This document shows positions 4,080-64,000 of a stretch of DNA of 64,000 nucleotides, one piece after another (the stretch's first letter is position 1; every line of letters begins with the position of its first letter). Both the position numbers and the translations under genes were made by a program. The notes under the pieces are model-generated. The model did no database searches. It saw only the letters and a program-made list of their open reading frames with translations, and was not told where the DNA came from. The stretch is from NCBI GenBank assembly GCA_964356125.1, contig CAYHHH010000001.1, positions 1,197 through 65,196 on the forward strand, given 5' to 3'. Source of the DNA: an uncultured Bifidobacteriaceae bacterium (GTDB lineage Bacteria > Acidobacteriota > Vicinamibacteria > Vicinamibacterales > JAMQPK01).

Positions 4080-4157
4080 GACAGGGCTGAAGCCCTGTGC
4101 CACCGGTGGTCAGAACTGAGGCCCGTGCCATAGGTGGCACAAGGCTTCAGCCTTGTC
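4080..4157. repeat. inverted pair of REP-like hairpins (REPIN-like doublet)
   Basis: 4080-4104 is GACAGGGCTGAAGCCCTGTGCCACC and 4134-4157 is GTGGCACAAGGCTTCAGCCTTGTC. They are in opposite orientation, 29 nt apart, just upstream of the receptor gene. Confidence 0.7.
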
Positions 4158-11170: not shown

Positions 11171-11946
11171 CAGAAGGACTCGCCTGGCAACAGGAAGCCG
11201 AACGTCCGCATCACAAATCGCCCTTGCGTGCCGTTGACGAACTCGATGAACGACATCGACGCGGCCGGTTGTTTCGTGCGGGAGAGGACGGCCGCCATCT
11301 GCTCGATCGGACGGTGAAGACGCGCGTCGACCAGCTTCCACTGCAGGTCGGAGGCATCCGCGACCGATCTCGCGACGATGCCGGCCTGAGCGGATCCGCT
11401 GCGGACGAACTGGACGGCCTGCTGGACGTTCTCGCCGAACACCAGCTTCGGTTCGAGCGTCTCCCAGAGCCCCGCGGCCTCGACCGCGTGTTTCGCCGCG
11501 AGCCCATACGGCGCGTGCTGCGGGTTCGCGATCGCGATGCGCGCGATGCGCGCGTCTGCCAGATCCTTGAGATCGTTGACCCGGATGCCGCTCGACGTGA
11601 GCGTGACCGTCGCGATGCGGCCGCGTGCGTAGATCGCGTGCGTCTGGCGCAGCGTCAGGTTCTCGGTCGCGAGATCGGTGATGAAGCTTTCGTTCGCGGC
11701 GAAGAACACGTCGGCGGGCGCGCCGTTTCGAATCTGCTGGGCGAGCGTGCCGGTCGAGCCGACCACGAGCGTCACGTCGGTCCGCGTCTTTCGCTCGAAC
11801 CGCGGAACGATCTGCGCGAACGCGGGACCGAGGTCGGACGCGGCAAACACGATCAGCGGCGCGGGCGGCGGCTCTTGGGCGCCCCCCGGCACTCCGTGGG
11901 CAGTCCAGAGTCCAAAGACCAAAGTCCACAACCAGGCAAAACGCAT
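11170..11946 (-). CDS. modA: molybdate ABC transporter substrate-binding protein
   Basis: LIVFAASDL...VGSTGTLAQQIRNGAPADVFFAAN is typical of ModA. ATG at 11946 chosen (MRFAWLWTLVFGLWTAHG signal peptide). The signal peptide is partly encoded by a heptamer array. Confidence 0.85.
   Translation of the reverse strand: MRFAWLWTLVFGLWTAHGVPGGAQEPPPAPLIVFAASDLGPAFAQIVPRFERKTRTDVTLVVGSTGTLAQQIRNGAPADVFFAANESFITDLATENLTLRQTHAIYARGRIATVTLTSSGIRVNDLKDLADARIARIAIANPQHAPYGLAAKHAVEAAGLWETLEPKLVFGENVQQAVQFVRSGSAQAGIVARSVADASDLQWKLVDARLHRPIEQMAAVLSRTKQPAASMSFIEFVNGTQGRFVMRTFGFLLPGESF
11901..11933 (+). repeat. heptamer array, GTCCAGA/GTCCAAA family (inside the modA signal-peptide region)
   Basis: CAGTCCAGAGTCCAAAGACCAAAGTCCACAACC. 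Confidence 0.7.
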
Positions 11947-11950
11947 AGGC

Positions 11951-11998
11951 GATTTGATATGATACCATTCGATTTTCGAAGTCAATTCAATCGATTTT
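11951..11998. promoter_or_regulatory. AT-rich divergent control region between modA and the HTH-TOBE regulator gene
   Basis: GATTTGATATGATACCATTCGATTTTCGAAGTCAATTCAATCGATTTT is strikingly AT-rich for this genome. It has repeated TCGATTTT and a TTCGA..TCGAA dyad. Confidence 0.45.
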
Positions 11999-12007
11999 GG
12001 AGGCAGG

Positions 12008-12457
12008 ATGGCGAACGACTTGGTCCGGGTGCGCGACGCCGCCCGCCGCCTCGGCGTCAGCTACGCGACGCTGAAACAGTGGATCTACAAAGGGACGCTG
12101 CGCACGGTCCAGACCGCCGGCGGCCACCATCGGATATCGGAATCGGAGCTCGAGCGCTTTCTGGCGCGCAAGGGTCCCGCCTCCGCGTCCGCGACGCTTC
12201 GGCGAGGCAGGCCTCGGTCCAAGAAGGTTCCCACTGTCCTCGTGGCCCTGAGCGGCCGCAATCAGCTTCGCGGCGTCGTCGAAGAGGTGCGCACCGACGG
12301 CCTCATGGCGCAGATCCGCCTGCGCATCGGCGACCAGACCCTGACCGCCATCATCACGCGCGACGCGATCGACGCGCTGCGCCTGAAGCGCGGGGATGAC
12401 GCGATGGCAGTCATTAAATCGACCGAGGTCATGATCGCGAAAGAAGCTAAACGCTGA
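12008..12457 (+). CDS. HTH (MerR/excisionase-type) DNA-binding protein fused to a TOBE/Mop molybdate-binding domain
   Basis: N-terminal LVRVRDAARRLGVSYATLKQWIYKG...HHRISESELERF. C-terminal SGRNQLRGVVEEV...IKSTEVMI TOBE fold. Divergent from modABC. Confidence 0.8.
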   Translation: MANDLVRVRDAARRLGVSYATLKQWIYKGTLRTVQTAGGHHRISESELERFLARKGPASASATLRRGRPRSKKVPTVLVALSGRNQLRGVVEEVRTDGLMAQIRLRIGDQTLTAIITRDAIDALRLKRGDDAMAVIKSTEVMIAKEAKR

Positions 12458-12542
12458 AAGTCCAGAGTCCAGAGTCCAGAGTCCAGAGTCCAGAGTCCAG
12501 AGTCCAGAGTCCAAAGTCCAAAGTCCAAAGTCCAAAGTCCGG
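12457..12542 (+). repeat. heptamer tandem array (TCCAGAG)x7 (TCCAAAG)x4
   Basis: Read directly. 11 perfect 7-nt units starting right at the stop of the HTH-TOBE gene. Confidence 0.95.
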
Positions 12543-12571
12543 ATGGCATCTCGAATGCCCTGACGCTGGGC

Positions 12572-12952
12572 ATGAAAGCTAAGAAACTCGAGGATTTGCA
12601 GGTATATAAGAAAGCGCTTAAAGGGATCGCTGAAGTTTCTCCACTACTGGGGCGCCTCACAGTACGCAGAGATTTCAAACTGCACGATCAACTGTCAGAG
12701 TCTTCCGGCAATATCCCTGGGCATATTGCGGAGGGATTCGGACAGCTCACCGACAAACACTTCGCTCACTATTTAGGAATCGCGCGTGGCTCGGCCCAGG
12801 AAACGCGCGGGCACCTCGCGACGGCTCTGGCAAAGAAACACATTTCAGCCGAGGACGAGGCGCGCGTTTCGGGACTCTATCGCGACCTCTGCAATATGCT
12901 CACGGCCTTTATTGAGTACCTTCGCGGTTCGGATTTCCGCGACCGATGGTAA
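12572..12952 (+). CDS. four-helix-bundle protein (23S rRNA intervening-sequence protein family)
   Basis: LEDLQVYKKAL...SSGNIPGHIAEGFG...FAHYLGIARGSAQETRGHL matches the family pattern. 126 aa. Flanked by inverted heptamer arrays. Confidence 0.85.
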   Translation: MKAKKLEDLQVYKKALKGIAEVSPLLGRLTVRRDFKLHDQLSESSGNIPGHIAEGFGQLTDKHFAHYLGIARGSAQETRGHLATALAKKHISAEDEARVSGLYRDLCNMLTAFIEYLRGSDFRDRW

Positions 12953-12979
12953 CCGTGGCGAGAAACCTCGACCCTCGTA

Positions 12980-13044
12980 CTCTGGCCTCTGGCCTTTTGG
13001 CCTTTTGGACTCTGGACTCTCGACTTTGGACTTTGGACTTTGCC
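12980..13044 (-). repeat. heptamer array, reverse-complement orientation of 12457-12542
   Basis: CTCTGGC CTCTGGC CTTTTGG ... CTCTGGA CTCTCGA CTTTGGA CTTTGGA CTTTG. Confidence 0.9.
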
Positions 13045-13055
13045 CCATTCACGCC

Positions 13056-13071
13056 ACGTAAGCACTTACGT
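13056..13071. promoter_or_regulatory. 16-bp perfect palindrome, candidate activator (UAS) site
   Basis: ACGTAAG-CA-CTTACGT, about 65 bp upstream of the sigma-54-type promoter. Confidence 0.3.
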
Positions 13072-13122
13072 AAACGGTAAGGTCCGCACGCGATCTCCTC
13101 AATAAATCCCGCACCCTTTCAC

Positions 13123-13138
13123 TGGTCCAGCCATTGCA
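13123..13138 (+). promoter_or_regulatory. sigma-54-type promoter (-24 TGG / -12 TTGCA) upstream of the CHRD gene
   Basis: TGGTCCAGCCATTGCA has GG-N10-GC spacing. Predicted +1 near 13149, SD 13158-13164, ATG 13170. Confidence 0.5.
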
Positions 13139-13169
13139 CTGGTGTCTATCCTTCCTTGGAGGAGACCAC

Positions 13170-13700
13170 ATGAAACGTCTTGCGATGCTCGCTCTGGTTC
13201 TTGCGTTCGGAATTTCCTGCGACGATTCACCGACCAGTCCCTCGGCCAATCCGAACGTCGCCCGGTTCACCGCGATTCTGCTGCCGTCGAACGAGGTGCC
13301 GGCTGTCACCAACGCCGACGCGTCGGCCAGCGGGACGATGCAGATGACGATGACCGTGACGCGCGACGCGGCCAACAACATCACCGGCGCGACGTACGAC
13401 TTCACCCTCCACGTCACCGGCTTTCCGGCGAACACGAGGCTGACCGGCGCGCATATCCATGCCGCAGCGGCCGGTACGAATTCGGGCGTCGTGGTTGGGG
13501 TTGCGTTAACGGCGGATGAGGCGGCCCTCGCGACAGGACAGTCCACGATCGCGAAGACAGGGCTCACGGCGAATGTCGCTGCCAATGCCGCCCCGGTGGC
13601 TCAGAACATCTTCAACAATCCCGGCGGTAACTATTTCAACATCCACACCAGCGTCAACGGCGGCGGCGCGATTCGCGGGCAACTCGTAAAAGTGGAATAG
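13170..13700 (+). CDS. CHRD domain-containing lipoprotein
   Basis: ATG at 13170 after GGAGGAG. Lipobox LAFGISC. CHRD-type motifs LLPSNEVP...GAHIHAAAAGTNSGVV...IHTSVNGGGAIRGQL. Confidence 0.8.
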   Translation: MKRLAMLALVLAFGISCDDSPTSPSANPNVARFTAILLPSNEVPAVTNADASASGTMQMTMTVTRDAANNITGATYDFTLHVTGFPANTRLTGAHIHAAAAGTNSGVVVGVALTADEAALATGQSTIAKTGLTANVAANAAPVAQNIFNNPGGNYFNIHTSVNGGGAIRGQLVKVE

Positions 13701-13978
13701 CTTCGAGACGTCAGGACGGGAGCCGCTCGCGCGGGGCGTGTTCAATCCGACCCGCCCTCCTCGAAAGCCGCAACCACACGAACGCGATTACGCATGCGGG
13801 CCGCCGCAGCCGAGCGCCCAGAGAACCAGCGCCGAGAGGACGATCGAGGCCACCAGCATCTTCATACGCGACGCGAAGGCAAAGCCGATGCCGCAGGCCG
13901 GCGTGTCACTTGGGCGAAAACTGTGGATTGTCAGAGGGAAACGGTTACGCGGCGCGTAATCCCTTACGGTGCCAGAAA

Positions 13979-14080: not shown

Positions 14081-14084
<4 letters not shown>
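13979..14084. repeat. three consecutive perfect-stem hairpins downstream of the sigma-54 regulator gene
   Basis: A 10-bp stem at 13979-14004 (+CTAC), an 11-bp stem at 14016-14040, and a 9-bp stem at 14054-14079 preceded by GTACGTAG and followed by GCTAC. Confidence 0.75.
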
Positions 14085-15444
<1,360 letters not shown>

Positions 15445-15448
<4 letters not shown>

Positions 15449-17286
15449 GCGTGTCCCTCCGGGAGATCGATACGAATTTCCGTTCCCTCGCCGGGACGGC
15501 TCTCGAGCGCGATCGTGCCTCCCATGCCCTCGATGATGTTCTTCGCGATCGCCAGGCCCAGGCCCGAGCCGGTGCGCGTCGTCGTGAAGTACGGATCGAA
15601 GACGCGCGGCAGATCTTCGGGCTTCACCCCGACGCCGCGATCGCGCACGGTGATGGCGAACGCATTAGGCGCACGGTGGGTCGTCATGGTGATGTCTTCG
15701 ACAGGGTTGAAACCCTGTGCCACCGCAACTGGAGAGCCCTGCGGTACCGGAACGGCCGCTCGCGCGGCGACGGCGTGGCGCGCATTCGTCAGGATGTTCA
15801 CGAGCGCGGTGCGCAGCCGCTCGGCGTCCGTGACGACGGTCCCGAGCGCGGGATCGGGTTGGATGGTCACATGCATCTCCTGGTGGCCGGCGCGCGTCGC
15901 TTCCTCGGCATCGGCGCACAAGGCGTTGACGTTGGCTGGCGCGTAGTCGAAGCGGATCGGCCGCGCGAAGTCGAGCACGTCGTTGACAACCCGGTTGAGC
16001 CGCGCGACTTCTTCGTCCACGTCGGTCAGCGCCTGCCGCATATCGTCGCGGCTCACCCGCTCGCTGGCGAGCGTCCGCAGCGACGCCTTGATGATCATCA
16101 GGGGATTGCGAATCTCGTGCGCGATGACGGTCGACAACCGCCCGAGCGCCGACAGCCGCTCGCGCTGCGCCGCCTCGCGCTGGAAGCGCGCAATCGAGTC
16201 GGTGAGCGTGTTGAACGTCGCCGCGAGCAGCTTGGCATCTTCGTCGTCCCAGCTCGCCGCGCGGCTCAACGCGATCTTCCGCGTCAGATCTCCGGTTGCC
16301 GACATTTCGCGCATCACGTCTGTAATCGTCGCCAGCGGACGCGTAATCGTCCGGGCCACAGCGTAGCTGAGAATCGTCGCCGCGAGCACGGCGATCATCG
16401 CCACGACGCCGAGGCCCGTGTGGATGGCGTCGAGGAACCGCAGCCGCTCCGTGCGCGAGCGGAGCAGCAGCACGCTCGGCGCGCGCTCGCCGCCCGAAGA
16501 GGCGGCCTGCGGCGTGAGCGGCCGCTTCAGCGCGACGTACTCGCCGGTGGCGAGCGCGATCGTCTGCACGCTACCGGTGTTCAGCAGCGACACAAGCTGT
16601 GCGCGATCGCCGGCCGGCAGCGTCGACGCGCGGATATGCCCGTCGACGGCGAACGCGATGTCGCTTTCCGTCGCCCGTTTGAATTGCGCCGCGAGCGCGT
16701 TGTCGAGACGGAAGCCGACGGAGAGCGTGCCCATGATTTCCGGTCGGTCCTGGTAGATGCTGACGGGCACGGCCATCATCTGCAGCACGCCGTCGGCCTG
16801 GGGCCAGAAGCCGACCGCCTCGCGCCCCGCGAGCGCCTCTTGAATTTCGGGCAGGGTGGCGATCGCGCCTTCCGCGATGTCGAGCGCGCCGGCTTCTGCG
16901 AGCACGCGCCCGGTTTTGTCCGTCAGCACGAGCAGCGCGGCGTCCAGTTGCTCCCGATATTCGCCGGCGAGCGGTTGCACGGTGGGCGGGTCGCCGGTAT
17001 CGACCGCCGCCTTCAACCGTGGGGCGTCCGCGACGAGGCGCGCCATGACCGTCAGCGTACGCAGGCGCGTCGCGCATTGCTCGTCGACGAGTGTGCCCGC
17101 TTCGAGCAGCCCGCGCTGCAGTTCTGCCTCGGCCTCGCGCGTCATGGTGCGGCTGACGAAATACACGGCCGCGCCGATCGACACCACGGCCAGCGCCGCG
17201 CTGGCCAGGAAAATCCGGTTGGTGAGCGATCCAAGAATCGTCACGCGGTCATCGCAGGGCGAAATCCGCTTCCACCGCGCCGCCAT
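15445..17286 (-). CDS. sensor histidine kinase (2 TM, large periplasmic domain, HAMP, HisKA, HATPase)
   Basis: H-box VIAHEIRNPL, N-box NILTNARHA, G-boxes DRGVGV and GSGLGLAI. 4-nt overlap with the regulator gene. Start is either ATG 17286 or GTG 17244. Confidence 0.85.
15700..15724 (-). repeat. REP-like hairpin inside the histidine-kinase CDS
   Basis: GACAGGGT-TGAA-ACCCTGTGCCACC belongs to the same family as 4080-4104. In frame, encoding VAVAQGFNPV. Confidence 0.7.
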
Positions 17287-17905
17287 CCTCAGGGATGACG
17301 ATCGGCCTCGACTCGCGGATGGCGCCTTCGTTCCACGCGACCAGCGTGTAGCGGCCCGGCGGGACGCGGCCAATCTGATATCGGCCGTCGGCCGACGTTA
17401 CCGCGAAATATCGATGGTTGAAGACGAGGATGAACGCGCTCATGTGCGAATGGATTTCGCAGAACACACGAACGATGCCCGGGCGATCGAAGCGCACCGG
17501 CTTCGAGCGTCCCGTCGCGTACCGGCCGAGATCGAAGCGCGGTGCGCGCAGCGAGAACACGTTGTGATAGGTGTTGTCGCTGTTCGGGAAATCCACGGTC
17601 GTCCCGACCGTAATCGCCAGCACATGCGGCACGAACGTCTCGTTCCGCTGATCCATCGTCGCGCGCTGCGGCTCCAGATCGGGGAACGCGAGGGCGGGCG
17701 CCGATTCGAGATAGACGACCGAGCGGCGAAGATCCGGCACATCGCGGCTCGCGTGCATCCCGAGGCCGGTCACGTTGGGGCGCCGCTCGATGGTGGGCGG
17801 CGTGCGCCGCACGTCGACGCGGCCGCGGATGACGCCCAGTGGCGCTTGCGCAGACACGTGCTCTGACAGGGCCAAGAGCAGAGAGCAAAGAGCCAGGTGC
17901 TTCAC
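17249..17905 (-). CDS. cupredoxin (type-1 copper site) protein with C-terminal carboxypeptidase-regulatory-like domain
   Basis: GTG start in a GTGA overlap with the upstream stop, followed by a signal peptide. Candidate ligand set is HNVF...CEIHSHM (His, Cys-x2-His-x2-Met). C-terminal YQIGRVPPGRYTLVAW beta-sandwich. Confidence 0.7.
   Translation of the reverse strand: MKHLALCSLLLALSEHVSAQAPLGVIRGRVDVRRTPPTIERRPNVTGLGMHASRDVPDLRRSVVYLESAPALAFPDLEPQRATMDQRNETFVPHVLAITVGTTVDFPNSDNTYHNVFSLRAPRFDLGRYATGRSKPVRFDRPGIVRVFCEIHSHMSAFILVFNHRYFAVTSADGRYQIGRVPPGRYTLVAWNEGAIRESRPIVIPEDGGAVEADFALR
17875..17893. repeat. AGAGCAG/AGAGCAA heptamer segment (inside the cupredoxin signal peptide)
   Basis: 19-nt AGAGCAGAGAGCAAAGAGC, identical to 61842-61860. 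Confidence 0.8.
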
Positions 17906-20431: not shown

Positions 20432-20508
20432 GTAGGTTCCAGGTTCCTGTTCCGGTTCCTGTTCGAACCCGGAACTTGGAACTGGAACCCGGAACCCGAA
20501 TCCCCTAC
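20432..20508. repeat. palindromic short-period array, GGTTCC/GGAACC family
   Basis: GTAGGTTCCAGGTTCCTGTTCCGGTTCCTGTTC | GAACCCGGAACTTGGAACTGGAACCCGGAACCC..CTAC, between nuoI and the TPR-protease gene. Confidence 0.9.
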
Positions 20509-22827: not shown

Positions 22828-22832
22828 GTGGT

Positions 22833-22908
22833 GTAAGTAGAAAGTAAGAAGTAAGACGTGAAAAGTAAAGGCTTACTTTCTACTTTCCACTTCTGACTTT
22901 CTACTTAC
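22833..22908. repeat. palindromic heptamer array, AGTAAGA family
   Basis: GTAAGTAGAAAGTAAGAAGTAAGACGTGAAAAGTAAAG | GCTTACTTTCTACTTTCCACTTCTGACTTTCTACTTAC, between two co-directional genes. Confidence 0.9.
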
Positions 22909-22917
22909 ATGGAACTC

Positions 22918-28444: not shown

Positions 28445-28496
28445 CCTGATCTGTGTAACTACTGATCTAGGGATCTAGATATCTATTGATCTAAAG
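28445..28496. repeat. 8-nt-period array, GATCTA family (left flank of the decayed four-helix-bundle gene)
   Basis: CTGATCTG TGTAACTA CTGATCTA GGGATCTA GATATCTA TTGATCTA. Confidence 0.85.
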
Positions 28497-28517
28497 AGCT
28501 TTGCAGTTTCCGCGAAG

Positions 28518-28972
28518 ATGCAGTGCGGAAACTGCACTGTCGTTCCGCGCCCGCCAAAATCCCTTAGGCAATTCTTTCGAACGGCAGGCATGGTCAGTGC
28601 ACTCGTGCGGGCTATGGCTGATGCTATCGATCTCATCGGACGCGCGCAAAAGTACGCGGTGGCTGCGTTCGACTTCTACGAGAGGTTTTCGCCGTCTTCT
28701 GCGGGGCACCACGCCGTTAGGCAGTTCTACCGCGCTTCTTCATCTGCAACATCGAACTACTGCGCCGCGAAACGGGGTCGCTCGCCGGCGGAGTTCATAT
28801 CGAAGCTCGGTACCTGTTGTCTGAAGCTGAACAGTTGCGGAGGATTTGGGGTGCTTCGCTGGGCACCGCTCGTCGAAATGAACACGCGCGTCAGCGGCGG
28901 CTGAAGGATGAGCGATCGAAGCGGCGACGCCAGAAGCCATCGAAGTCGCGAAGATACCCGGATCCTACGTAG
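28518..28972 (+). pseudogene. decayed four-helix-bundle (23S-IVS family) gene
   Basis: ...RASSSATSNYCAAKRGRSPAEFISKLG matches the RSxTSxxANYxxAxxxRSxAEFISKL core of the family. Downstream helices are lost. The family-like C-terminus (EAEQLRRIWGASLGTARRN) is readable only in the +1 frame up to the TAG at 28970. Confidence 0.55.
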
Positions 28973-29007
28973 ATCAGTAGATCTCTAGATCAGTAGATCT
29001 CTAGATA
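28960..29007. repeat. 8-nt-period array, GATCTA family (right flank)
   Basis: (TAGATCAG TAGATCTC)x2 TAGATA. Complementary to the left flank. Confidence 0.85.
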
Positions 29008-30146: not shown

Positions 30147-30880
30147 AAGTGTCTGGGAATCGAGGTCCATTTCTCGCGCCCTTCGTAGAACAGCGGCTTG
30201 CGGTCGGGATGTGACTCTTTGAACGCGCGATATCGCGCCCGGAAATCGCGGAACCTCGCGTCTGACATCCGCAGCGGCTGGTGCTGCGTGTCGAGCAGCA
30301 TGCGCTCCACCTTCCACACGTTCCTGTCGGAGAGCCGCCAGTCGTAGTGGCCCATCACGCGCAGGTCGACCAGCGCGAACGCTTCGATACGGCCGGTGAG
30401 ATCCACGTACGTGTCGAGGTAGCTCGCCGCGAGCGCGCGCGGCGTGGCGAAGACCGGCTTGCGCCCGTGCAGCCCCGGATCGCGCGAGCGCGCGACGGAC
30501 CCCCAGAAAAGGGGACGGGAATCTTTTTCGCCCGTTCGTTTCGAAAAAGATTCCCGTCCCCTTTTCTGATACACAAAGATCACGTGATCCAGCTCATCGA
30601 TCGACTCGAAGCTGATGACGAGCGGAGGATAGCCGTGCTGTTCGAGCACCGTCGCGGCGAAGAGCGCCGCCTCGAGGCAATGCGCCGTGTGACGCTGGAC
30701 GACCCCGCGGAAGCTGCGCAGCGTGGCGCGGCCGGGGGGCGGCTCGGTGTTGTACGGAAGCGCGTTCAGGTACCGCTGCACGTCGAGCGGCGTACGCAGC
30801 CGCGCGATCAGCCGGCGTTCAGCTGGTGTGAATGTCAGAGCAGCCGCTCGAGTTCGGCGACCAGTTCTGCGGGTGTCCAC
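30125..30880 (-). CDS. putative transglutaminase-like cysteine peptidase fold protein
   Basis: Candidate Cys-His-Asp arrangement (TAHCLEAALFA...DHVIFVY...D). Contains a 27-bp perfect palindrome in frame. The 5' end overlaps the SCO1 gene by 46 nt, so the start is uncertain. Confidence 0.55.
   Translation of the reverse strand: MDTRRTGRRTRAAALTFTPAERRLIARLRTPLDVQRYLNALPYNTEPPPGRATLRSFRGVVQRHTAHCLEAALFAATVLEQHGYPPLVISFESIDELDHVIFVYQKRGRESFSKRTGEKDSRPLFWGSVARSRDPGLHGRKPVFATPRALAASYLDTYVDLTGRIEAFALVDLRVMGHYDWRLSDRNVWKVERMLLDTQHQPLRMSDARFRDFRARYRAFKESHPDRKPLFYEGREKWTSIPRHFLVRQVR
30504..30568. repeat. 27-bp perfect inverted repeat with 11-nt loop inside the transglutaminase-like CDS
   Basis: Left arm CAGAAAAGGGGACGGGAATCTTTTTCG (30504-30530), right arm CGAAAAAGATTCCCGTCCCCTTTTCTG (30542-30568). 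In frame. Confidence 0.95.
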
Positions 30881-31714: not shown

Positions 31715-33376
31715 ATGAGCAAAGGGAAAACCCGTCGTATCGAAGTCATGGATACGACGCTTCGCGATGGCGAGCAGGCCGAAGGCATCTCGATGATGCC
31801 CGAGGAGAAGCGCACCATCGCCCAGCGCCTGCTCGAGGTCGTCAAGGTCGATCGCATCGAGGTCGCGTCCGCGCGCGTCAGCGAAGGCGAGCGCCGCGCC
31901 GTGAAGACAATCGTGGACTACGCCGACTCGAAGGGGTGGACCGATCGCGTCGAGATCCTGGGGTTCGTCGATGGCACCCGATCCGTCGACTGGGCAAAGT
32001 CGGTGGGCGCGCGCGTCATCAACCTGTTGACGAAGGGCTCGCTGCATCACTGCCGCGAGCAGTTGAAAAAAACGCACGAGCAGCACCTCGACGACATCCG
32101 CAGGACGATCGAGTACGGCGCGAAGAACGGCATCACGTTCAACGTGTATCTCGAGGACTGGTCGGGCGGCATGATCGGCTGCGTCGACTACGTCGACGAG
32201 CACATCGACGCGCTCCTCGAGCTGCCGGTGAAGCGCATTCTGCTGCCCGACACGCTCGGTTTGCTGTCGCCATTGCAGGTGCGCGAGTTCGTCGGGCGCA
32301 TCATCGCGAAATTCCCGGACAGCCATTTCGATTTCCACGGGCACAACGATTACGGCCTCGGCACCGCGAACACGCTCGAAGCGGCGATCGCCGGGGCGCA
32401 CGGCGTGCACGTCACCGTGAACGGCATGGGCGAGCGCGCCGGCAACGTGACGCTCGACGAAGTCGTGGTGGCGCTGCGCGATCACGCCGGCATCAGGACA
32501 TCGGTCGACGAGCGTGCGCTGTCGGACGTGAGCAGGCTCGTCGAGGTGTTCTCCGGCCGCCGCGTGCCGCCAAACAAGCCGATCGTCGGCGAAAACGTGT
32601 TCACGCAGACGGCCGGCATCCACGCCGACGGCGACATGAAGGGCAACCTCTACGAAAGCCGCCTCACGCCGGTGCGATTCGGCCAGCACCGCACGTATGC
32701 GATGGGCAAGCTGATGGGGAAGGCGAGCCTCGACTTCAATCTCGAGCGCCTCAACATCACGCTCTCGCCCGAGCAGAAACAGCAGCTCGTGGCGCGCATC
32801 GTCGAGCTCGGCGATCAGAAGAAGAGCGTCACGCAGTCGGATCTCCCGTTCCTCATTTCAGAGATCCTGCAGACCCGCGACCTGCGCGTGTTCGAAGTGA
32901 AGGATTACTCCGTCGTCAGCAATCGCGGCCTGCGGCCGACGGCGACGCTGCTGGTTCGGTACCGCGACAAAGAGCTTCACGCCACCGGCTCGGGCGACGG
33001 CGGCTACGACGCCTTCATGCAGGCGTTGAAGAGCATCGAGAAGCAGCTCGGCTTCGCGCTGCCGAAGCTGCTCGATTACGAGGTCAGAATCCCGCCGGGC
33101 GGCAAGACCGACGCCCTGGTGGAGACCACTATCAAGTGGGAAGGCGGCATGAAGACCCGCGGCGTGCACAGCGATCAGCTGGCGGCGGCGATTCAGGCCA
33201 CGGAACATGCACTCAACATGATTGCACTGAGAAGCGCACCCAATCATCAGGGGCAAAGGGTAAGGGGCAAGGGGCAACGTGTTACCCCTCACCCCTCTCC
33301 CCTCACCCCTATCTCAAAACAGAGGATCCATGGCACAACTGGGCACAAAAAAATCGCTGACGCTCGCCGCGGCTAA
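31715..33376 (+). CDS. citramalate / 2-isopropylmalate synthase family enzyme (CimA-like)
   Basis: MDTTLRDGEQ, FHGHNDYGLGTAN, and a C-terminal LeuA-dimer regulatory domain. The last 42 or so codons run through a heptamer palindrome and overlap the next gene. Confidence 0.9.
   Translation: MSKGKTRRIEVMDTTLRDGEQAEGISMMPEEKRTIAQRLLEVVKVDRIEVASARVSEGERRAVKTIVDYADSKGWTDRVEILGFVDGTRSVDWAKSVGARVINLLTKGSLHHCREQLKKTHEQHLDDIRRTIEYGAKNGITFNVYLEDWSGGMIGCVDYVDEHIDALLELPVKRILLPDTLGLLSPLQVREFVGRIIAKFPDSHFDFHGHNDYGLGTANTLEAAIAGAHGVHVTVNGMGERAGNVTLDEVVVALRDHAGIRTSVDERALSDVSRLVEVFSGRRVPPNKPIVGENVFTQTAGIHADGDMKGNLYESRLTPVRFGQHRTYAMGKLMGKASLDFNLERLNITLSPEQKQQLVARIVELGDQKKSVTQSDLPFLISEILQTRDLRVFEVKDYSVVSNRGLRPTATLLVRYRDKELHATGSGDGGYDAFMQALKSIEKQLGFALPKLLDYEVRIPPGGKTDALVETTIKWEGGMKTRGVHSDQLAAAIQATEHALNMIALRSAPNHQGQRVRGKGQRVTPHPSPLTPISKQRIHGTTGHKKIADARRG
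33250..33310. repeat. palindromic heptamer array, GGGGCAA / CCCCTCA family
   Basis: GGGGCAAAGGGTAAGGGGCAAGGGGCAACGTGTTACCCCTCACCCCTCTCCCCTCACCCCT, inside the 3' end of the cimA-like ORF. Confidence 0.9.
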
Positions 33377-34264: not shown

Positions 34265-34326
34265 AATTGGTAGATTGCCTGATTGGAAGATTGGTAGATC
34301 CCCAATCCCTAATCCCAAATCCCTAG
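34265..34326. repeat. palindromic array, GATTGG / CCAATCC family
   Basis: GAATTGGTAGATTGCCTGATTGGAAGATTGGTAGATC | CCCAATCCCTAATCCCAAATCCCTAGG. 34300-34316 is identical to 39098-39114. Confidence 0.85.
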
Positions 34327-40915: not shown

Positions 40916-40918
40916 GAA

Positions 40919-41003
40919 CTAGGTGCGTTGGGGGCGTCAGGTGCGTTGGGTGCGCTAGGTGCGCACCCCTCGCACCTAACGCACCCCTCGCACCTAACGC
41001 ACC
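40919..41003. repeat. palindromic 9-nt-period array, ACGCACC/GGTGCGT family
   Basis: TAGGTGCGT TGGGGGCGT CAGGTGCGT TGGGTGCGC TAGGTGCGC | ACCCCTCGC ACCTAACGC ACCCCTCGC ACCTAACGC ACC. The centre is GGTGCGCACC. Confidence 0.9.
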
Positions 41004-41007
41004 AAAT

Positions 41008-41349
41008 TTACCAGCGTGGCTCTCGTCGTCCGCCGCCGCCACCACCGCCGCCGCGGTTGCCGCGCTCGAAGCCGCCGCCACCGCCGCCGCCACCACCCAT
41101 GGGCTTGGGCCGCGCCTCATTGACGACCAGGGGGCGTCCTTCCATTTTGAATTCGTTGAGCTCGGTGATCGCCTTCTGGGCTTCCTCGTCGCTGGCCATC
41201 TCGACGAAGCCAAATCCCCGCGCCCGGCCCGTGGCCATGTCGCGCATGATGCGCGCGCTCTCCACGGTCCCCGCCCGGCTGAAGAGCTCGGTGAGCTCGG
41301 TTTCGCCGGTCTGATACGGAAGGTTCCCCACGTACAGCTTGCGACCCAT
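41008..41349 (-). CDS. RNA-binding protein, RRM domain with glycine-rich tail (paralog of 33896..34258)
   Basis: ATG 41349. LYVGNL, RGFGFVEM, and a tail ending GGRREPRW identical to the paralog. Confidence 0.9.
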   Translation of the reverse strand: MGRKLYVGNLPYQTGETELTELFSRAGTVESARIMRDMATGRARGFGFVEMASDEEAQKAITELNEFKMEGRPLVVNEARPKPMGGGGGGGGGFERGNRGGGGGGGGRREPRW

Positions 41350-48659: not shown

Positions 48660-49715
48660 TTGCTGAAGCTTGCACTGATTCTTGCGGCGGCAATTCTTGC
48701 CCTGACGCCGCTGCCTCGCCACGTCGTCGAGCGCGTGTACTCGCGCGGCCTGTATCCGATCGTGCAGCCCAGGCTGACCGCGCTGAGCAACAGCACACCG
48801 TTCGCGTGGTTCGACGTGCTGGTGCTGGTGACGATCGGCGCCACGATCGCGATGTGGGTTATGCGTCTGAGCCGGCGGAAAAAAGGTGTGCGTGCGACGA
48901 TCGCAGGGCTCGCCCTCGACACCGCGGCGCTCGCCGCCGTTCTCTACGTATGGTTTCTGTTCGCGTGGGGGCTGAATTATCAGCGGCAGCCGCTGCGCGA
49001 GCAGCTCGACTTCCGCGACGATCGCATCACGCGCGACGCGCTGCGCACGCTCGCGGGCCGCACGGTCGATTCGCTGAATGCGCTGCATCGCGAGGCTCAC
49101 GCAGGCGGATGGCCCGACCTCGCGGCGACGCCGGCTGCGCTCGAGCCTGCCTTCGTGCGCGCGCAGCGCGATCTCGCGCTGTCGTGGACGGCGCAGGGGG
49201 GACGTCCCAAGCGGACGCTCTTCAATTTTTATTTTACGCGCGTGTCGGTTGACGGCATGACAGGACCGTTTTTTCTCGAGACGCTGGCCAACGGAACGCT
49301 CCTGCCGTTCGAGCGCGCGGCGACGATCGCGCACGAGTGGAGCCATCTCGCAGGCTACGCGGACGAATCGGAAGCGAACTTTGTCGGATGGCTCGTCTGC
49401 ATGCGCGGTCCGGTAGCCGTGCAGTACAGCGGCTGGCTCTCGTTATATGGAACGGTCGCCGGCGCGCTGCCGCGATCCGATCGCGACGCCGTGCTGGCGC
49501 GCCTCGATGAGGGGCCGCGCGCCGATCTGCGCGCGATTTCCGATCGCATTCGCCGGCACGCGGTGCCGGCCGCCAGCCGCGCGGGCTACGCGCTCTACGA
49601 TCGATTTCTGAAGGCCAACAGGGTAGAAGCAGGGGTACGAAGCTACGGCGAGGTGCTGCGCCTGTTGCTCGGTACGCGCTTCACTGACGCTGGAGCGCCG
49701 ATGCTGCGCAAATAG
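48660..49715 (+). CDS. DUF3810 domain protein (putative membrane zinc protease)
   Basis: TTG start. N-terminal TM helices. IAHEWSHLAGYADESEANFVGW motif. Confidence 0.8.
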   Translation: MLKLALILAAAILALTPLPRHVVERVYSRGLYPIVQPRLTALSNSTPFAWFDVLVLVTIGATIAMWVMRLSRRKKGVRATIAGLALDTAALAAVLYVWFLFAWGLNYQRQPLREQLDFRDDRITRDALRTLAGRTVDSLNALHREAHAGGWPDLAATPAALEPAFVRAQRDLALSWTAQGGRPKRTLFNFYFTRVSVDGMTGPFFLETLANGTLLPFERAATIAHEWSHLAGYADESEANFVGWLVCMRGPVAVQYSGWLSLYGTVAGALPRSDRDAVLARLDEGPRADLRAISDRIRRHAVPAASRAGYALYDRFLKANRVEAGVRSYGEVLRLLLGTRFTDAGAPMLRK

Positions 49716-49770
49716 GGGTGAGGGGTGAGGGGAAATGCTTGCCCCTTGCCCTTCACCCCTTGCCCCTTGC
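49715..49770. repeat. palindromic heptamer array, same family as 33250-33310 in the opposite orientation
   Basis: GGGGTGAGGGGTGAGGGGAAATGCTTGCCCCTTGCCCTTCACCCCTTGCCCCTTGC, between convergent genes. Confidence 0.9.
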
Positions 49771-61372: not shown

Positions 61373-61834
61373 ATGCCCATCACTCTGACGGTCAACGGAA
61401 GCAAGCGGTCCTTCGATGGCGATCCGGAGATGCCGCTCTTGTGGTACCTCCGCGATGAGCTCGGACTCACAGGCACCAAATACGGATGCGGCGCGGGGCT
61501 GTGCGGATCGTGCACCGTCCATCGCGACGGAAAAGCCGTACGCTCGTGCCAGACGCCGATGAAAGCGCTGGCCGGCGGACAGATCACGACGATCGAAGGA
61601 TTGAGCCCGGACGGATCGCATCCGGTGCAGCAGGCGTGGATGCAGGCCAACGTGCCGCAGTGCGGGTACTGTCAATCCGGGCAGATCATGCAGGCGGTGG
61701 CATTTCTCAGAACCAGTCCGAAGCCGTCCGATCAGCAGATCGACACGGCCATGTCCGGCAACATCTGCCGTTGCGGCACCTACCAGCGCATCCGCGAAGC
61801 GATTAAGTTGGCCGCTGACGGGAGGCGCGCATGA
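61373..61834 (+). CDS. (2Fe-2S)-binding small subunit of a xanthine-dehydrogenase-family Mo hydroxylase (IorA-like)
   Basis: [12 protein letters not shown] and [10 protein letters not shown]...CRCGTY cluster motifs. Confidence 0.9.
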
Positions 61835-64000
61835 AGGGCATAGAGCAGAGAGCAAAGAGCACGCTCGGCCCGATCGAGAACGTGACGCGGCGGCACTTTC
61901 TCGGCGGCGTGTTGTCCGCCGGTGCGTTCGTGCTCGCGGCGCGCGTGATGCCCGAGGAGTTGTTCGCGCAGACGCCTGCGGCGCGTTCGCTGCTGAGTCA
62001 GGCCGAAAAATCGGCGTTGCGTCCGAGCATCTATCTGGGCATCGAGCCTGACGGCACGGTGTACATCGTGACGCACCGCTCGGAGATGGGCACGGGCATC
62101 AGAACGACGCTGCCGATCATTGCGGCCGATGAGCTCGACGCCGATTGGAGCAAGGTCAAGATCGAGCAGGGCATCGGCGACGTGCGGTACGGCGATCAGA
62201 ACACCGACGGCTCGAAGTCGATCCGCGATTTCTACGACGCGTTCCGTCTGGCGGGCGCGTCCGCGAGGACGATGCTCGTCTCGGCGGCGGCGGCGCAGTG
62301 GGGGGTGCCGGTATCAGAGTGCGCGGCGCGCGTGCACGAGGTCGTGCACGGGCCGAGCAATCGCCGGTTGGGTTACGGCGCGCTCGCGACCGCCGCGGGG
62401 AAGCTGCCCGTGCCTTCCGCGGCGCAAGTCCGGCTGAAGACCAGGAACGAGTGGCGATTCATCGGCAAGGACTTTCGCGCGTACGACCTGTCCGACATCG
62501 TGGCGGGCAAAGCGATGTTCGGCATGGATACGACGCGCGAGGGCATGTTGTACGCGTCGATCGAGCGTCCTCCCGTCCTTGGCGCCACGGTTCGATCGAT
62601 CGACGCCGCACAGGCATTGAAAGTGCCTGGCGTGCGGCAGACGGCGACGATCGATACCTACAAGCCGCCGCTGATGTTTCAAGCAGTCGGCGGTGTTGCG
62701 GTGCTCGGCGACAGCACGTGGGCCGTCATGCAGGGGCGGAGGCGGCTGACGGTGGACTGGGATCTCGGCCCGAACGCCGCGTTCGACTCGGAAGCGTTCA
62801 AGAAAGAGCTGATCGCGACGGTGCACCAGCCGCAGAAAGTGGTGCGCGCGGTCGGCGACGTCGACGCCGAGTTTGCGAAAGGCGGCAAGACGGTTGAAGC
62901 GACCTATTACACGCCGCTCCTCGCGCACGCGTCGATGGAGCCGCCCGTTGCCGTGGCCGACTTCCGCGACAACAAGGTGACCATCTGGGCGTCCGTGCAG
63001 AATCCGCAGGCGACGCAGGACACGGCTGCCGCAGCGCTCGGCATCCCCAAAGAAGACGTGACGGTGCACGTCACGCTGCTGGGCGGTGGCTTCGGGCGCA
63101 AGTCGAAGCCGGATTTCGCGGCGGAAGCGGCCGTGCTCTCGAAGAAAGCCGGGAAGCCCGTCAAGGTCGTCTGGACGCGCGAAGACGATCTGAAGTTCGA
63201 CTTCTATCATTCGACGGCCGCGGTGTATCACAAGGCCGTGCTTGACGGCAGCGGCAAGCCGTCAGCGTGGCTGGCGCGCTCGGCGTTTCCGCCGATCGCG
63301 TCGACGTTCGAGCACGGCGCGCGATACGCGCTCGATCTCGAGAACGGCATGGGGCTGGTCGATCTGCCGTACGAGCTGGCGAATCATCAGGTTGAAAACG
63401 GGCCGGCGAGCGCACACGTCCGCATCGGATGGTTCCGCGCGGTGGCGAACAACTATCACGTGTTCGCATCGGGCAGCTTCGTCGACGAACTGGCGCGCGC
63501 GGCGGGCCGCGATCCGCTCGAGTACCTGCTCGACCTGATCGGTCCGGGCCGCGTCATCGATTTGAAGCCGCAGCTCAGGGGCGCAGATTACTGGAACTAC
63601 GGCGCGCCGCTCGACAAATATCCGATCGACTCGCGGCGGCTGCGCCGCGTGCTCGAGGTAGCGGGGGAGCGGTCGGGGTGGGGCAAGCGCAAGGCCGGGG
63701 GCGGCTGGGGCATGGGCGTGTACGCGCACCGCAGCTTCAACACGTACGTCGCGTCGGTCGTCGAGGTCGAAGTCGACAAGGCTGGCCGCGTCCGGGTGCC
63801 GCGCGTCGTGCAGGTGTTCGACGCGGGTCTCGTGGTGAATCCGGCGGCGGCGAAGCAGCAGTTCGAGGGCGCGGCCGTGATGGGAGTCGGGCTGGCGATG
63901 CTCGGCGAGATCTCCGCTGTCGGCGGACGCGTGCAGCAGACCAACTTCAACAATTTCCAGGTCGCCCGCATGAACAGCGCGCCCGTGCAGGTGGACGTCC
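61831..64000 (+). CDS. molybdopterin-binding large subunit of a xanthine-dehydrogenase-family hydroxylase (IorB-like), 3' end outside the window
   Basis: Absent from the ORF track because no stop is reached. ATGA overlap with the small subunit. My own translation reads [20 protein letters not shown] (Tat motif)..[49 protein letters not shown]. The frame is open to nt 64000. Confidence 0.85.
61842..61860. repeat. AGAGCAG/AGAGCAA heptamer segment (inside the IorB-like N-terminus)
   Basis: Identical 19-mer to 17875-17893. Confidence 0.8.

Follow-up and report, generated by a model that had tools for sequence, protein, structure and literature searches.

A four-helix-bundle gene between inverted heptamer arrays in a Vicinamibacterales genome: a probable intervening-sequence-type cassette outside ribosomal RNA

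What is a gene of the 23S ribosomal RNA (rRNA) intervening-sequence protein family doing between two protein-coding genes, and what is to be made of the long, mutually complementary arrays of seven-nucleotide units that enclose it? The question is raised by a 64,000-nucleotide (nt) stretch of DNA, hereafter the window, from an uncultured bacterium of the Vicinamibacterales, Acidobacteriota (assembly GCA_964356125.1, contig CAYHHH010000001.1, positions 1,197 to 65,196), in which a gene for a 126-amino-acid (aa) protein lies between a regulator gene and a CHRD gene. Intervening sequences (IVSs) of rRNA have been called selfish for thirty years, and we know of no free-living form of them and of no mode of spread; tandem heptamer repeats, whether the short tandemly repeated repetitive sequences (STRRs) of cyanobacteria or the general prokaryotic excess of heptamers, are to our knowledge likewise without explanation so far. 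Our analyses indicate that the locus is probably an IVS-type hairpin-array cassette, a discrete unit outside rRNA, and that proteins of this family stand between inverted short-period arrays in many other genomes.

The architecture had been proposed from the letters of the window and their open reading frames (the sequence-only reading), and direct reading, the repeat finder TRF and domain matches confirm its array coordinates, its bracketed gene and its neighbours (Table 1). The left array begins where the regulator gene upstream ends, at its TGA stop codon (12457), and is delimited by TRF at 12459-12540, with period 7, 11.7 copies and 98% matches, while the units of the right array at 12979-13042 read CTCTGGC, CTTTTGGC, CTCTGGA, CTCTCGA and CTTTGGA, some of them 8 nt long. 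The best inverted arms to be drawn from the two arrays are 43 nt at 84%, 36 nt at 92% and 21 nt at 100% complementarity. When 12440-13060 is folded as RNA, the arrays form the closing stem round the whole open reading frame (ORF) on both strands, with a minimum free energy of -245.8 (z -6.5) on one and -255.2 (z -5.8) on the other, in keeping with the stem-and-loop geometry first suggested. A scan of 11900-13250 for sigma-70-like promoters and intrinsic terminators found none, and the window holds no Rfam match at gathering score, only a chance match to a miRNA (E 0.32).

The enclosed gene is a clear member of its family, scoring 74 bits against PF05635 (cut-off 33.8) and 66 bits against TIGR02436 (cut-off 24), with profile matches to the solved proteins 2GSC (E 2.6e-9) and 2RLD. 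Its AlphaFold model (pLDDT 93) finds the S23p-family structures 2RLD and 2GSC at the top of a Foldseek search (TM-score 0.76-0.92, root-mean-square deviation 1.3-2.1), followed by Avd of the Bordetella phage diversity-generating retroelement (DGR) and by Avd subunits of DGR reverse transcriptase-RNA complexes (TM-score about 0.7-0.89). Sequence identity to Avd is about 9-12%, and sequence similarity lies with the S23p branch (2GSC, 2RLD), not with Avd. The solved relatives are pentamers, and by analogy with these S23p-family members the protein may form pentamers too. The ratio of non-synonymous to synonymous change (dN/dS) is 0.08-0.19, by which measure the gene is functional and under strong purifying selection. 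No homologs were found in a phage collection; a single-sequence phmmer search of the window found no paralogs, and about 700 kb of fetched related DNA held no family members or GxxExxY genes beyond those already targeted.

Are such inverted flanks peculiar to this gene family? For each gene an inverted-flank score was taken as the best local alignment of the upstream flank with the reverse-complemented downstream flank, and 366 ordinary genes from the window and 22 related loci served as controls. The window cassette scores 34. The controls have a median score of 9.5 and a 99th percentile of 14, and with two exceptions none scores higher than 15, the maximum of the remainder; these two (2/366) are a decayed paralog of the cassette gene in the window itself (28446-29006) and a GxxExxY gene in locus L025 (TIGR04256, 126 bits). 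Homolog loci exceed 15 in 19 of 23 cases (median near 34, highest score 84), and the expectation of the sequence-only reading that family members should be flanked by inverted short-period arrays is thereby upheld. The two arrays of an inverted pair are separated either by 5-48 nt or by 413-562 nt. The second cassette of the window was found from its arrays to the ORF between them, which was then scored with NCBIfam: it reaches 26.3 bits against TIGR02436 (cut-off 24), falls below the cut-off of PF05635, and is taken as a decayed paralog because it matches only the N-terminal half of the TIGR02436 model.

That the locus is a discrete cassette, as had been supposed, is supported by relatives in which this site is found cleanly empty, decayed, inverted or altered in copy number. 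The series of sites below comes from a metagenome scan that used the CHRD protein encoded next to the cassette as its query. All syntenic loci keep, upstream of CHRD, a palindrome, ACGTAAGCACTTACGT, which is followed by AAACGGTAAG (13056-13082 in the window) and is probably an operator. An orthologous empty site, with the regulator gene followed directly by the CHRD gene, had been named as something to look for; L040 is such a site, in which the end of the regulator directly meets the palindrome, the stop codon falling inside it, and both arrays and gene are absent. Elsewhere in the series, L045 has the regulator followed by an array remnant of about 45 nt; in L034 both arrays survive, together with TGGCA as a remnant and about 40 nt from within the coding sequence; L036 carries a decayed cassette; L041, L042 and L070 retain the right array alone and have lost the regulator; and L044 holds a mini-hairpin, AAAGTCCAAAGTC-gta-GACTCTTGGACTT, of the kind found gene-less elsewhere in the window. 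From these site states it follows that the arrays belong to the unit, and that gene-less hairpin arrays can arise through loss of the cargo.

Orientation and arm length vary as well. At the aconitase/lpxB context the flanks of L005 and L023 are 92-93% identical and reversed, the inter-array segment runs forward at 80%, and the breakpoints lie in the arrays. L011, L014 and L017 carry the cassette of the CHRD locus in flipped orientation, and the CHRD gene itself is flipped in L031 and L038, where in L038 it stands between the GACTC and GAGTC arrays of two oppositely oriented cassettes. A length difference of exactly one 16-nt unit in the right array separates strains whose protein is identical. 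As a separate observation, one cassette of L038 carries a transposase gene fragment (510-1100, IS256-like by eye) within its hairpin, between gene and right array.

The arrays accompany the gene from one context to another. Relatives whose version of the protein has no more than 65-87% identity still carry it at the regulator/CHRD locus, and other homologs lie in unrelated contexts, between aconitase and lpxB and between a SnoaL-like gene and a GDPD gene; arrays are present at the CHRD locus and at both of these, with units of 7, 8, 9 or 10 nt round a constant GAGTC core. Protein lineages below about 50% identity each have a core of their own (CAGTCRG, GATCGTC, AGGCAAA, AGGTCAK), and cores differ even inside one genome, as between L017 and L018 and between the two cassettes of the window. 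Over 307 cassette pairs from different genomic contexts, which are not phylogenetically independent, protein identity correlates with 5-mer similarity of the left arrays (Spearman 0.52, permutation p ≤ 0.0005); this shows co-inheritance or matching of gene and arrays, without telling which. The purine-rich arm lies upstream in 24 of 27 cassettes, but in 11 of 14 independent contexts (p = 0.057), and this polarity is suggestive only.

Recurrence extends far beyond the Acidobacteriota. A plasmid collection was searched with the window protein and two solved family members, and 15 of the many hits were read. Thirteen of them have inverted flanks with z scores of 6.9 to 21 against shuffles, and represent the Cyanobacteriota, Bacteroidota, Spirochaetota, Bacillota, Chloroflexota, Gemmatimonadota and Pseudomonadota. 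Six cyanobacterial loci are positive (units GGGAACA, GGGTGTA, GGGAAAA, AATCCCC and CTAAAAG), as are Bernardetia (TTAGTGA x17) and Chondrinema among the Bacteroidota, Treponema, Monoglobus (Bacillota), Chlorohelix (Chloroflexota), Gemmatirosa (Gemmatimonadota) and Azospirillum lipoferum; another Chlorohelix locus (L114) is weak (z 3.7). There is no inverted-array signal at the Nostoc locus L117, which lies beside an ISL3 transposase, or at the Opitutae and candidate phyla radiation loci from the genome scan (L028, L029). In all, the same architecture was seen in at least eight phyla. Family members also stand inside operons, between fabD and fabG, between the adaptor and permease genes of a resistance-nodulation-division (RND) system, between hsdS and hsdR (Monoglobus, L111) and between cas6 and cas4.

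Two further sets of loci deserve mention beside these. Some members sit at defence loci, namely hsdS/hsdR (L111), a helicase/DNA methylase pair (L114) and a site beside a HEPN protein (L113); a further one is on a Pseudanabaena plasmid (L101, 392-2725), where the family member lies between cas6 and cas4, arrays of CTAAAAG type separate each gene, and cas4 itself stands between inverted arrays. GxxExxY genes, whose proteins are classed with the PD-(D/E)XK nuclease fold, have inverted arrays on either side with a CAGAGG-like core in Gemmatirosa, Bacteroides and Bernardetia, and an upstream array only in Sphingomonas.

The link to rRNA is direct. At the Azospirillum lipoferum locus (L116) a 23S rRNA gene (Rfam LSU rRNA, 1087 bits) carries an insertion of about 470 nt, in which the family ORF sits between GAGGACG GATGACA GAGGACG GAGGACA and its complement; these heptamer arms round a family ORF mean that a genuine rRNA IVS has the same design. 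The Coxiella IVS is a second point of reference, with a stem of 28-bp terminal inverted repeats, an S23p ORF in its loop, and, ahead of the ORF, tandem GACAGAT heptamers that number two or three depending on the strain; RNase III cleaves at the first repeat (PMC4990558). What had been described as IVS-like geometry outside rRNA is therefore matched by true IVSs on both counts, stem and heptamers. Likeness to the 23S rRNA IVSs of Coxiella, Leptospira, Azospirillum and others thus comprises the same protein family, an ORF in the loop of an inverted-flank stem, and heptamers that are strain-variable tandem repeats by the ORF in Coxiella and array-built arms in Azospirillum. The differences are that the window cassette lies between protein-coding genes and not in helix 25 or 45 of 23S rRNA, that long arrays (85 and 65 nt) make up its arms in place of a 28-bp unique stem, that it has a conserved promoter-like motif, and that purifying selection acts on its gene, while decay and lack of translation are reported for the Coxiella ORF. 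Since the cassette is not within 23S rRNA, it is an IVS-type element outside rRNA and not an IVS. In L116 a GG-N10-GC match, TGGATCGGAACGTGCT (629-644), lies between left array and ORF and could be chance; the ORF itself has no obvious in-frame start codon.

The promoter-like motif is a feature of the cassette that the sequence-only reading had not noticed. Every Vicinamibacterales homolog has YGGCAY-N5-NTGCC between left array and start codon, beginning 26-30 nt before the start codon and thus with GG-N10-GC 12-16 nt away from it, and its GG, A and TGC are invariant across 21 aligned homolog loci; in the window its GC sits 14 nt ahead of the ATG. The sigma-54 promoter consensus is TGGCAC-N5-TTGC, and TGGCATCTCGAATGCC has the -24/-12 core and spacing of that class. 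The organism encodes activators of sigma-54 type, with PF00158 in a syntenic NtrC-like gene. A similar site, GCGGCATCGGCTTTGCC, stands 12 nt ahead of the ATG of a small lipoprotein-like ORF (MKMLVASIVLSALVLWALGCGG..., window 13790-13893, minus strand), with the motif-to-ATG spacing of the cassette. Seven syntenic loci conserve it; beside it lie genes for an NtrC-type activator (14081-15448) and for a sensor kinase (15445-17373), and site and ORF together have the look of a sigma-54 transcription unit without a leader. The cassette motif is thus a probable sigma-54-type promoter, and given a GC 14 nt before the ATG the predicted mRNA would be leaderless or nearly so. Because this putative promoter lies inside the loop, the gene's own mRNA would carry the 3' arm only. 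Reading the motif as a hairpin was ruled out as the better account: its pairs show no two-sided, compensatory changes, covariation is not above that of shuffles (36 of 500), and L021 and L024 have lost the palindrome and retained GG-N10-GC.

Besides the cassettes, the window contains gene-less hairpin arrays that start 0-11 nt after stop codons (Table 1). Period 7 accounts for 95 of about 205 TRF rows (at least 3 copies) in these genomes, followed by periods 8, 9 and 6. Several unit families (GGTTCC, GGTGCGTTG, AATCCC, GATCTA and AAGAGCA) recur at separate sites in the window, where 6 strong pairs were counted in 64 kb against about 0.8 expected. The AAGAGCA-type heptamer arrays, for example, lie at 17874-17893 and 61834-61861, 44 kb apart, with a 6-mer cosine of 0.81.

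We interpret these observations as follows. The unit would comprise an upstream tandem array of short units, mostly of 7 nt and usually the purine-richer strand; its own promoter of sigma-54-type -24/-12 form, with a transcription start at or a few bases from the start codon; a small gene for a presumably pentamer-forming four-helix-bundle protein of S23p/Avd fold; and a downstream array of complementary units. The whole would be gained or lost together. Replication slippage would lengthen and shorten the arms, and DNA-level recombination between them would keep them alike and also flip the enclosed segment, while a unit that lost its cargo would persist at the 3' end of a gene as solo arrays or as a gene-less hairpin array. 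In a read-through transcript the arms would pair into a duplex of at least 45 bp round the ORF, and such pairing would let the element sit between the genes of an operon, or in 23S rRNA, from which RNase III removes it. On this model rRNA intervening sequences would be the same element in another location.

Several findings weigh against this interpretation or limit it. Clear inverted arrays are missing from 4 of the 23 homolog loci and from 2 or 3 of the 15 plasmid loci. Comparison of filled and empty sites revealed neither a target-site duplication nor conserved element ends, and because no transposase, integrase or target-site duplication was found, the case for movement as a unit is one of presence and absence; the empty site L040 could itself be a secondary deletion. 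The window's exact cassette and CHRD gene recur in a second context, 100% identical over 1030 nt and joined to the stop codon of a GAPDH gene (L119, junction at 2387), and this identical protein in new surroundings may stem either from a rearrangement of the genome itself or from a false join made in assembly by way of an identical array behind GAPDH, the junction lying at the first array unit on a low-coverage contig of 5.2 kb. The sigma-54 assignment is drawn from the motif, which is also near-palindromic. Where the arms mismatch, changes compatible with G-U pairing on the sense strand are not in excess (46 vs 55, p = 0.43) and transversions dominate, hence there is no sign of selection on an RNA stem, and the likeness of the arms looks like DNA-level homogenisation, of which double-stranded RNA in read-through transcripts would be an automatic by-product. 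Finally, the recurrence of dispersed unit families is not accounted for by local slippage and hints at a process acting in trans.

This last point is the main reason for keeping open a model in which the protein recognises the repeats, in the manner of repetitive extragenic palindromic (REP) sequences and their REP-associated tyrosine transposases (RAYTs) or of TRAP: the predicted pentamer would bind its own units, about one per subunit, in single-stranded RNA or DNA, and would regulate, maintain or disperse its cognate arrays, gene cassettes being the masters and gene-less arrays their dispersed partners. The model complements the cassette interpretation without excluding it, and we hold it tentatively, as a possibility and not as the expected outcome. 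A constant GAGTC core with a variable spacer, giving units of 7 to 10 nt (7, 8, 9 and 10), is what binding of one motif per subunit predicts; each diverged protein lineage has its own core, even within one genome; unit families are dispersed well above expectation; gene copies are few and solo arrays many; the fold matches that of Avd, a protein bound to both RNA and reverse transcriptase in the complexes of DGRs; and the GxxExxY cargo is flanked by its own repeats much as RAYT genes are by REPs. Common descent of a moving unit would, however, explain the covariation of protein and repeat equally well. Decayed cassettes keep their arrays without the gene, the four-helix-bundle protein has no catalytic domain, and array pairs with a GAGTC core also enclose non-coding DNA (L022, 18167-18778). 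A wider version is more speculative still, and we regard it as doubtful: in it S23p proteins, with GxxExxY proteins as their parallel, would act in trans on a widespread system of repeats and would create, maintain or disperse hairpin arrays, each lineage recognising its own unit of about 7 nt, one per ring subunit, with gene-bearing cassettes as masters.

About as doubtful is a device acting at the RNA level, in which selection favours a long double-stranded RNA stem and RNase III excises or insulates the cassette or controls mRNA stability. It would agree with the stem predicted on both strands, with RNase III excision of the Coxiella IVS (PMC4990558), and with the presence of members inside 23S rRNA and the operons named above (fabD-fabG, RND adaptor-permease, hsdS-hsdR, cas6-cas4) without destroying them. 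Against it stand the absent G-U-compatible bias on the coding strand with its predominance of transversions, the inversions by which the arms recombine as DNA, and the putative promoter in the loop, which would leave the gene's own mRNA without a 5' arm. Selection on the stem as RNA was rejected on the first of these grounds.

The inversions might instead be functional, with the inverted arrays serving as sites of programmed flipping and the neighbours subject to phase variation. Both orientations do occur at two loci with breakpoints inside the arrays, and in L038 the neighbouring CHRD gene is itself flipped between arrays. Yet no recombinase gene lies nearby, the orientations differ between genomes diverged at species level and not within one population, and the promoter moves with the gene, so flipping would not switch it; an invertible switch is therefore unlikely. 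Coincidence, by which short-period hairpin arrays are a general terminator-like intergenic feature and the gene fell between two of them by chance, draws on the abundance of gene-less arrays just behind stop codons in the window, and is very improbable: it is ruled out by the 366-gene control and further contradicted by the eight phyla, by a unit core that follows the gene between contexts, and by an empty site that has no arrays. Least credible of all is a DGR remnant with the protein as its Avd accessory factor, for despite the similar fold (TM-score 0.77/0.89) the sequence sides with S23p, the flanking repeats are short-period arrays and not a 100-nt repeat pair, and the gene content within 5 kb rules it out, with no reverse transcriptase domain and no template/variable repeat pair.

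How does the cassette compare with other known systems? Like REP sequences, their paired forms (REPINs) and RAYTs, it has one gene between inverted copies of a short repeat, and related repeats are dispersed mostly just after stop codons, with solo copies far outnumbering gene copies; its own units reappear at 11902, and paired occurrences of other unit families are spread over the window. The gene is nevertheless no Y1 (IS200/IS605-like) transposase and matches PF05635 only, the repeats are tandem arrays of 7-9-nt units and not single palindromes of 20-40 nt, and one genome holds many unit families side by side. Cyanobacterial STRRs are likewise tandem heptamers in intergenic DNA, and it is arrays of precisely this sort that flank the cyanobacterial family members; a helix in the RNase P RNA genes of cyanobacteria is another place where STRRs occur. 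They differ in having been described as repeats of unknown function. An excess of heptanucleotide simple repeats has been noted in prokaryotes (PMC4679880, citing Mrazek 2007), and the literature searched held no link of STRRs or of this excess to an enclosed gene or an inverted arrangement. The DGR protein Avd shares the four-helix-bundle fold, with pentamers among the related solved members, and is set apart by the low sequence identity given above and by the reverse transcriptase and template/variable repeats that the locus does not have. Finally, decay recalls that of miniature inverted-repeat transposable elements, full copies standing beside internally deleted ones that keep the inverted ends (L034, L036, L044), although the full copy has no transposase and the site no target-site duplication. 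The sequence-only reading could assign the cassette to no described class of element, and none fits: the literature searched held no description of an S23p gene within inverted arrays outside rRNA, an absence that is no proof of novelty.

Within 5 kb of the cassette lie molybdate transport genes, the regulator, the CHRD gene, a DUF5777 gene and a two-component system, and a gene for a ModA-like binding protein is among these neighbours. The third patch of heptamers noticed in modA is real (TRF, 11902-11928): units of the cassette's array family encode the ModA signal peptide MRFAWLWTLVFGLWTAHG. Because the signal peptides of ModA in relatives are unrelated and without repeats, repeat sequence appears to have been recruited into the coding region. 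This patch and the left arm form direct repeats on either side of the regulator gene, which is deleted in several relatives. Apart from the arrays, the window has non-tandem inverted repeats at 4080-4157 (30-nt arms, 87%, 18-nt loop) and at 30504-30568 (27-nt perfect arms, 11-nt loop). Another hairpin element, GTAGGGCTCA(A/G)CTTTAG(C/T)TGAGC, occurs in L022 (18210-18713), twice inside a GGAGTCTG array pair without recognisable gene, and in L030 (1-110), where it forms a tandem array upstream of CHRD.

Table 1. Positions of the two cassettes, their neighbours and the gene-less hairpin arrays in the 64,000-nt window.
Feature	Position	Strand	Basis or remark
Patch of left-arm heptamers in ModA signal-peptide coding sequence (WTLVFGLWT)	11901-11933	-	TRF (11902-11928); relatives compared
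HTH_17+TOBE regulator gene	12008-12457		Upstream neighbour; domain match
Cassette, left arm: tandem array (AGTCCAG)x7(AGTCCAA)x4	12457-12542	+	Direct reading and TRF
Motif TGGCATCTCGAATGCC (GG-N10-GC), predicted sigma-54-type -24/-12 promoter	12544-12559	+	Position and conservation in Vicinamibacterales homologs
126-aa four-helix-bundle gene (PF05635 / TIGR02436; S23p/Avd fold)	12572-12952	+	Family models; predicted structure
Cassette, right arm: degenerate reverse-complement units (CTCTGGA/CTTTGGA/CTCTGGC and 8-nt variants)	12976-13044	+	Direct reading, TRF
CHRD protein gene	13170-13700		Neighbour; domain match
Gene-less hairpin array GGTTCCN / GGAACYN	20435-20498		11 nt after stop codon; unit family again at 41539-41570
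Gene-less hairpin array AAGTAAG / CTTACTT	22832-22909		9 nt from stop codon
Second cassette, left arm: GATCTAGR-type 8-nt units	28446-28497	+	TRF
Decayed/truncated paralog of four-helix-bundle gene	28518-28904	+	N-terminal half of TIGR02436 model only
Second cassette, right arm: TAGATCAG/TAGATCTC units	28969-29006	+	TRF; inverted-flank score 24
Gene-less hairpin array AGGGGCA / ACCCCTC	33249-33310		Two-unit composite again at 49714-49770, opposite orientation
Gene-less hairpin array GATTGGTA / AATCCCN	34266-34325		8 nt after stop codon; unit family again at 39092-39122
Gene-less hairpin array GGTGCGTTG / CGCACCYNN, 9-nt units	40917-41008		Between two genes; family again at 30084-30143
Gene-less hairpin array AGGGGTG / CTTGCCC	49714-49770		Begins at stop codon

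The best-supported conclusion is that the finding generalises a known kind of element, the cassette and the ORF-bearing rRNA intervening sequences being of the same kind. The locus and its relatives link the protein family of rRNA IVSs with tandem heptamer arrays, from Acidobacteriota to Cyanobacteriota to a true IVS; they offer a concrete, testable model for the origin of gene-less hairpin arrays behind genes, and account for an element that lives inside operons and stable RNAs. Putative repeat binding gives a functional lead for the very large S23p family and for the unrelated GxxExxY family. If these proteins are indeed trans-acting partners of a repeat system, one mechanism would cover the heptamer excess, the STRRs and the origin of intervening sequences in rRNA and RNase P RNA. 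For the genomes themselves the arrays are hotspots of rearrangement, with gene inversion, regulator deletion and recruitment of repeats into a signal peptide, and this bears both on how these genomes evolve and on how they are assembled.

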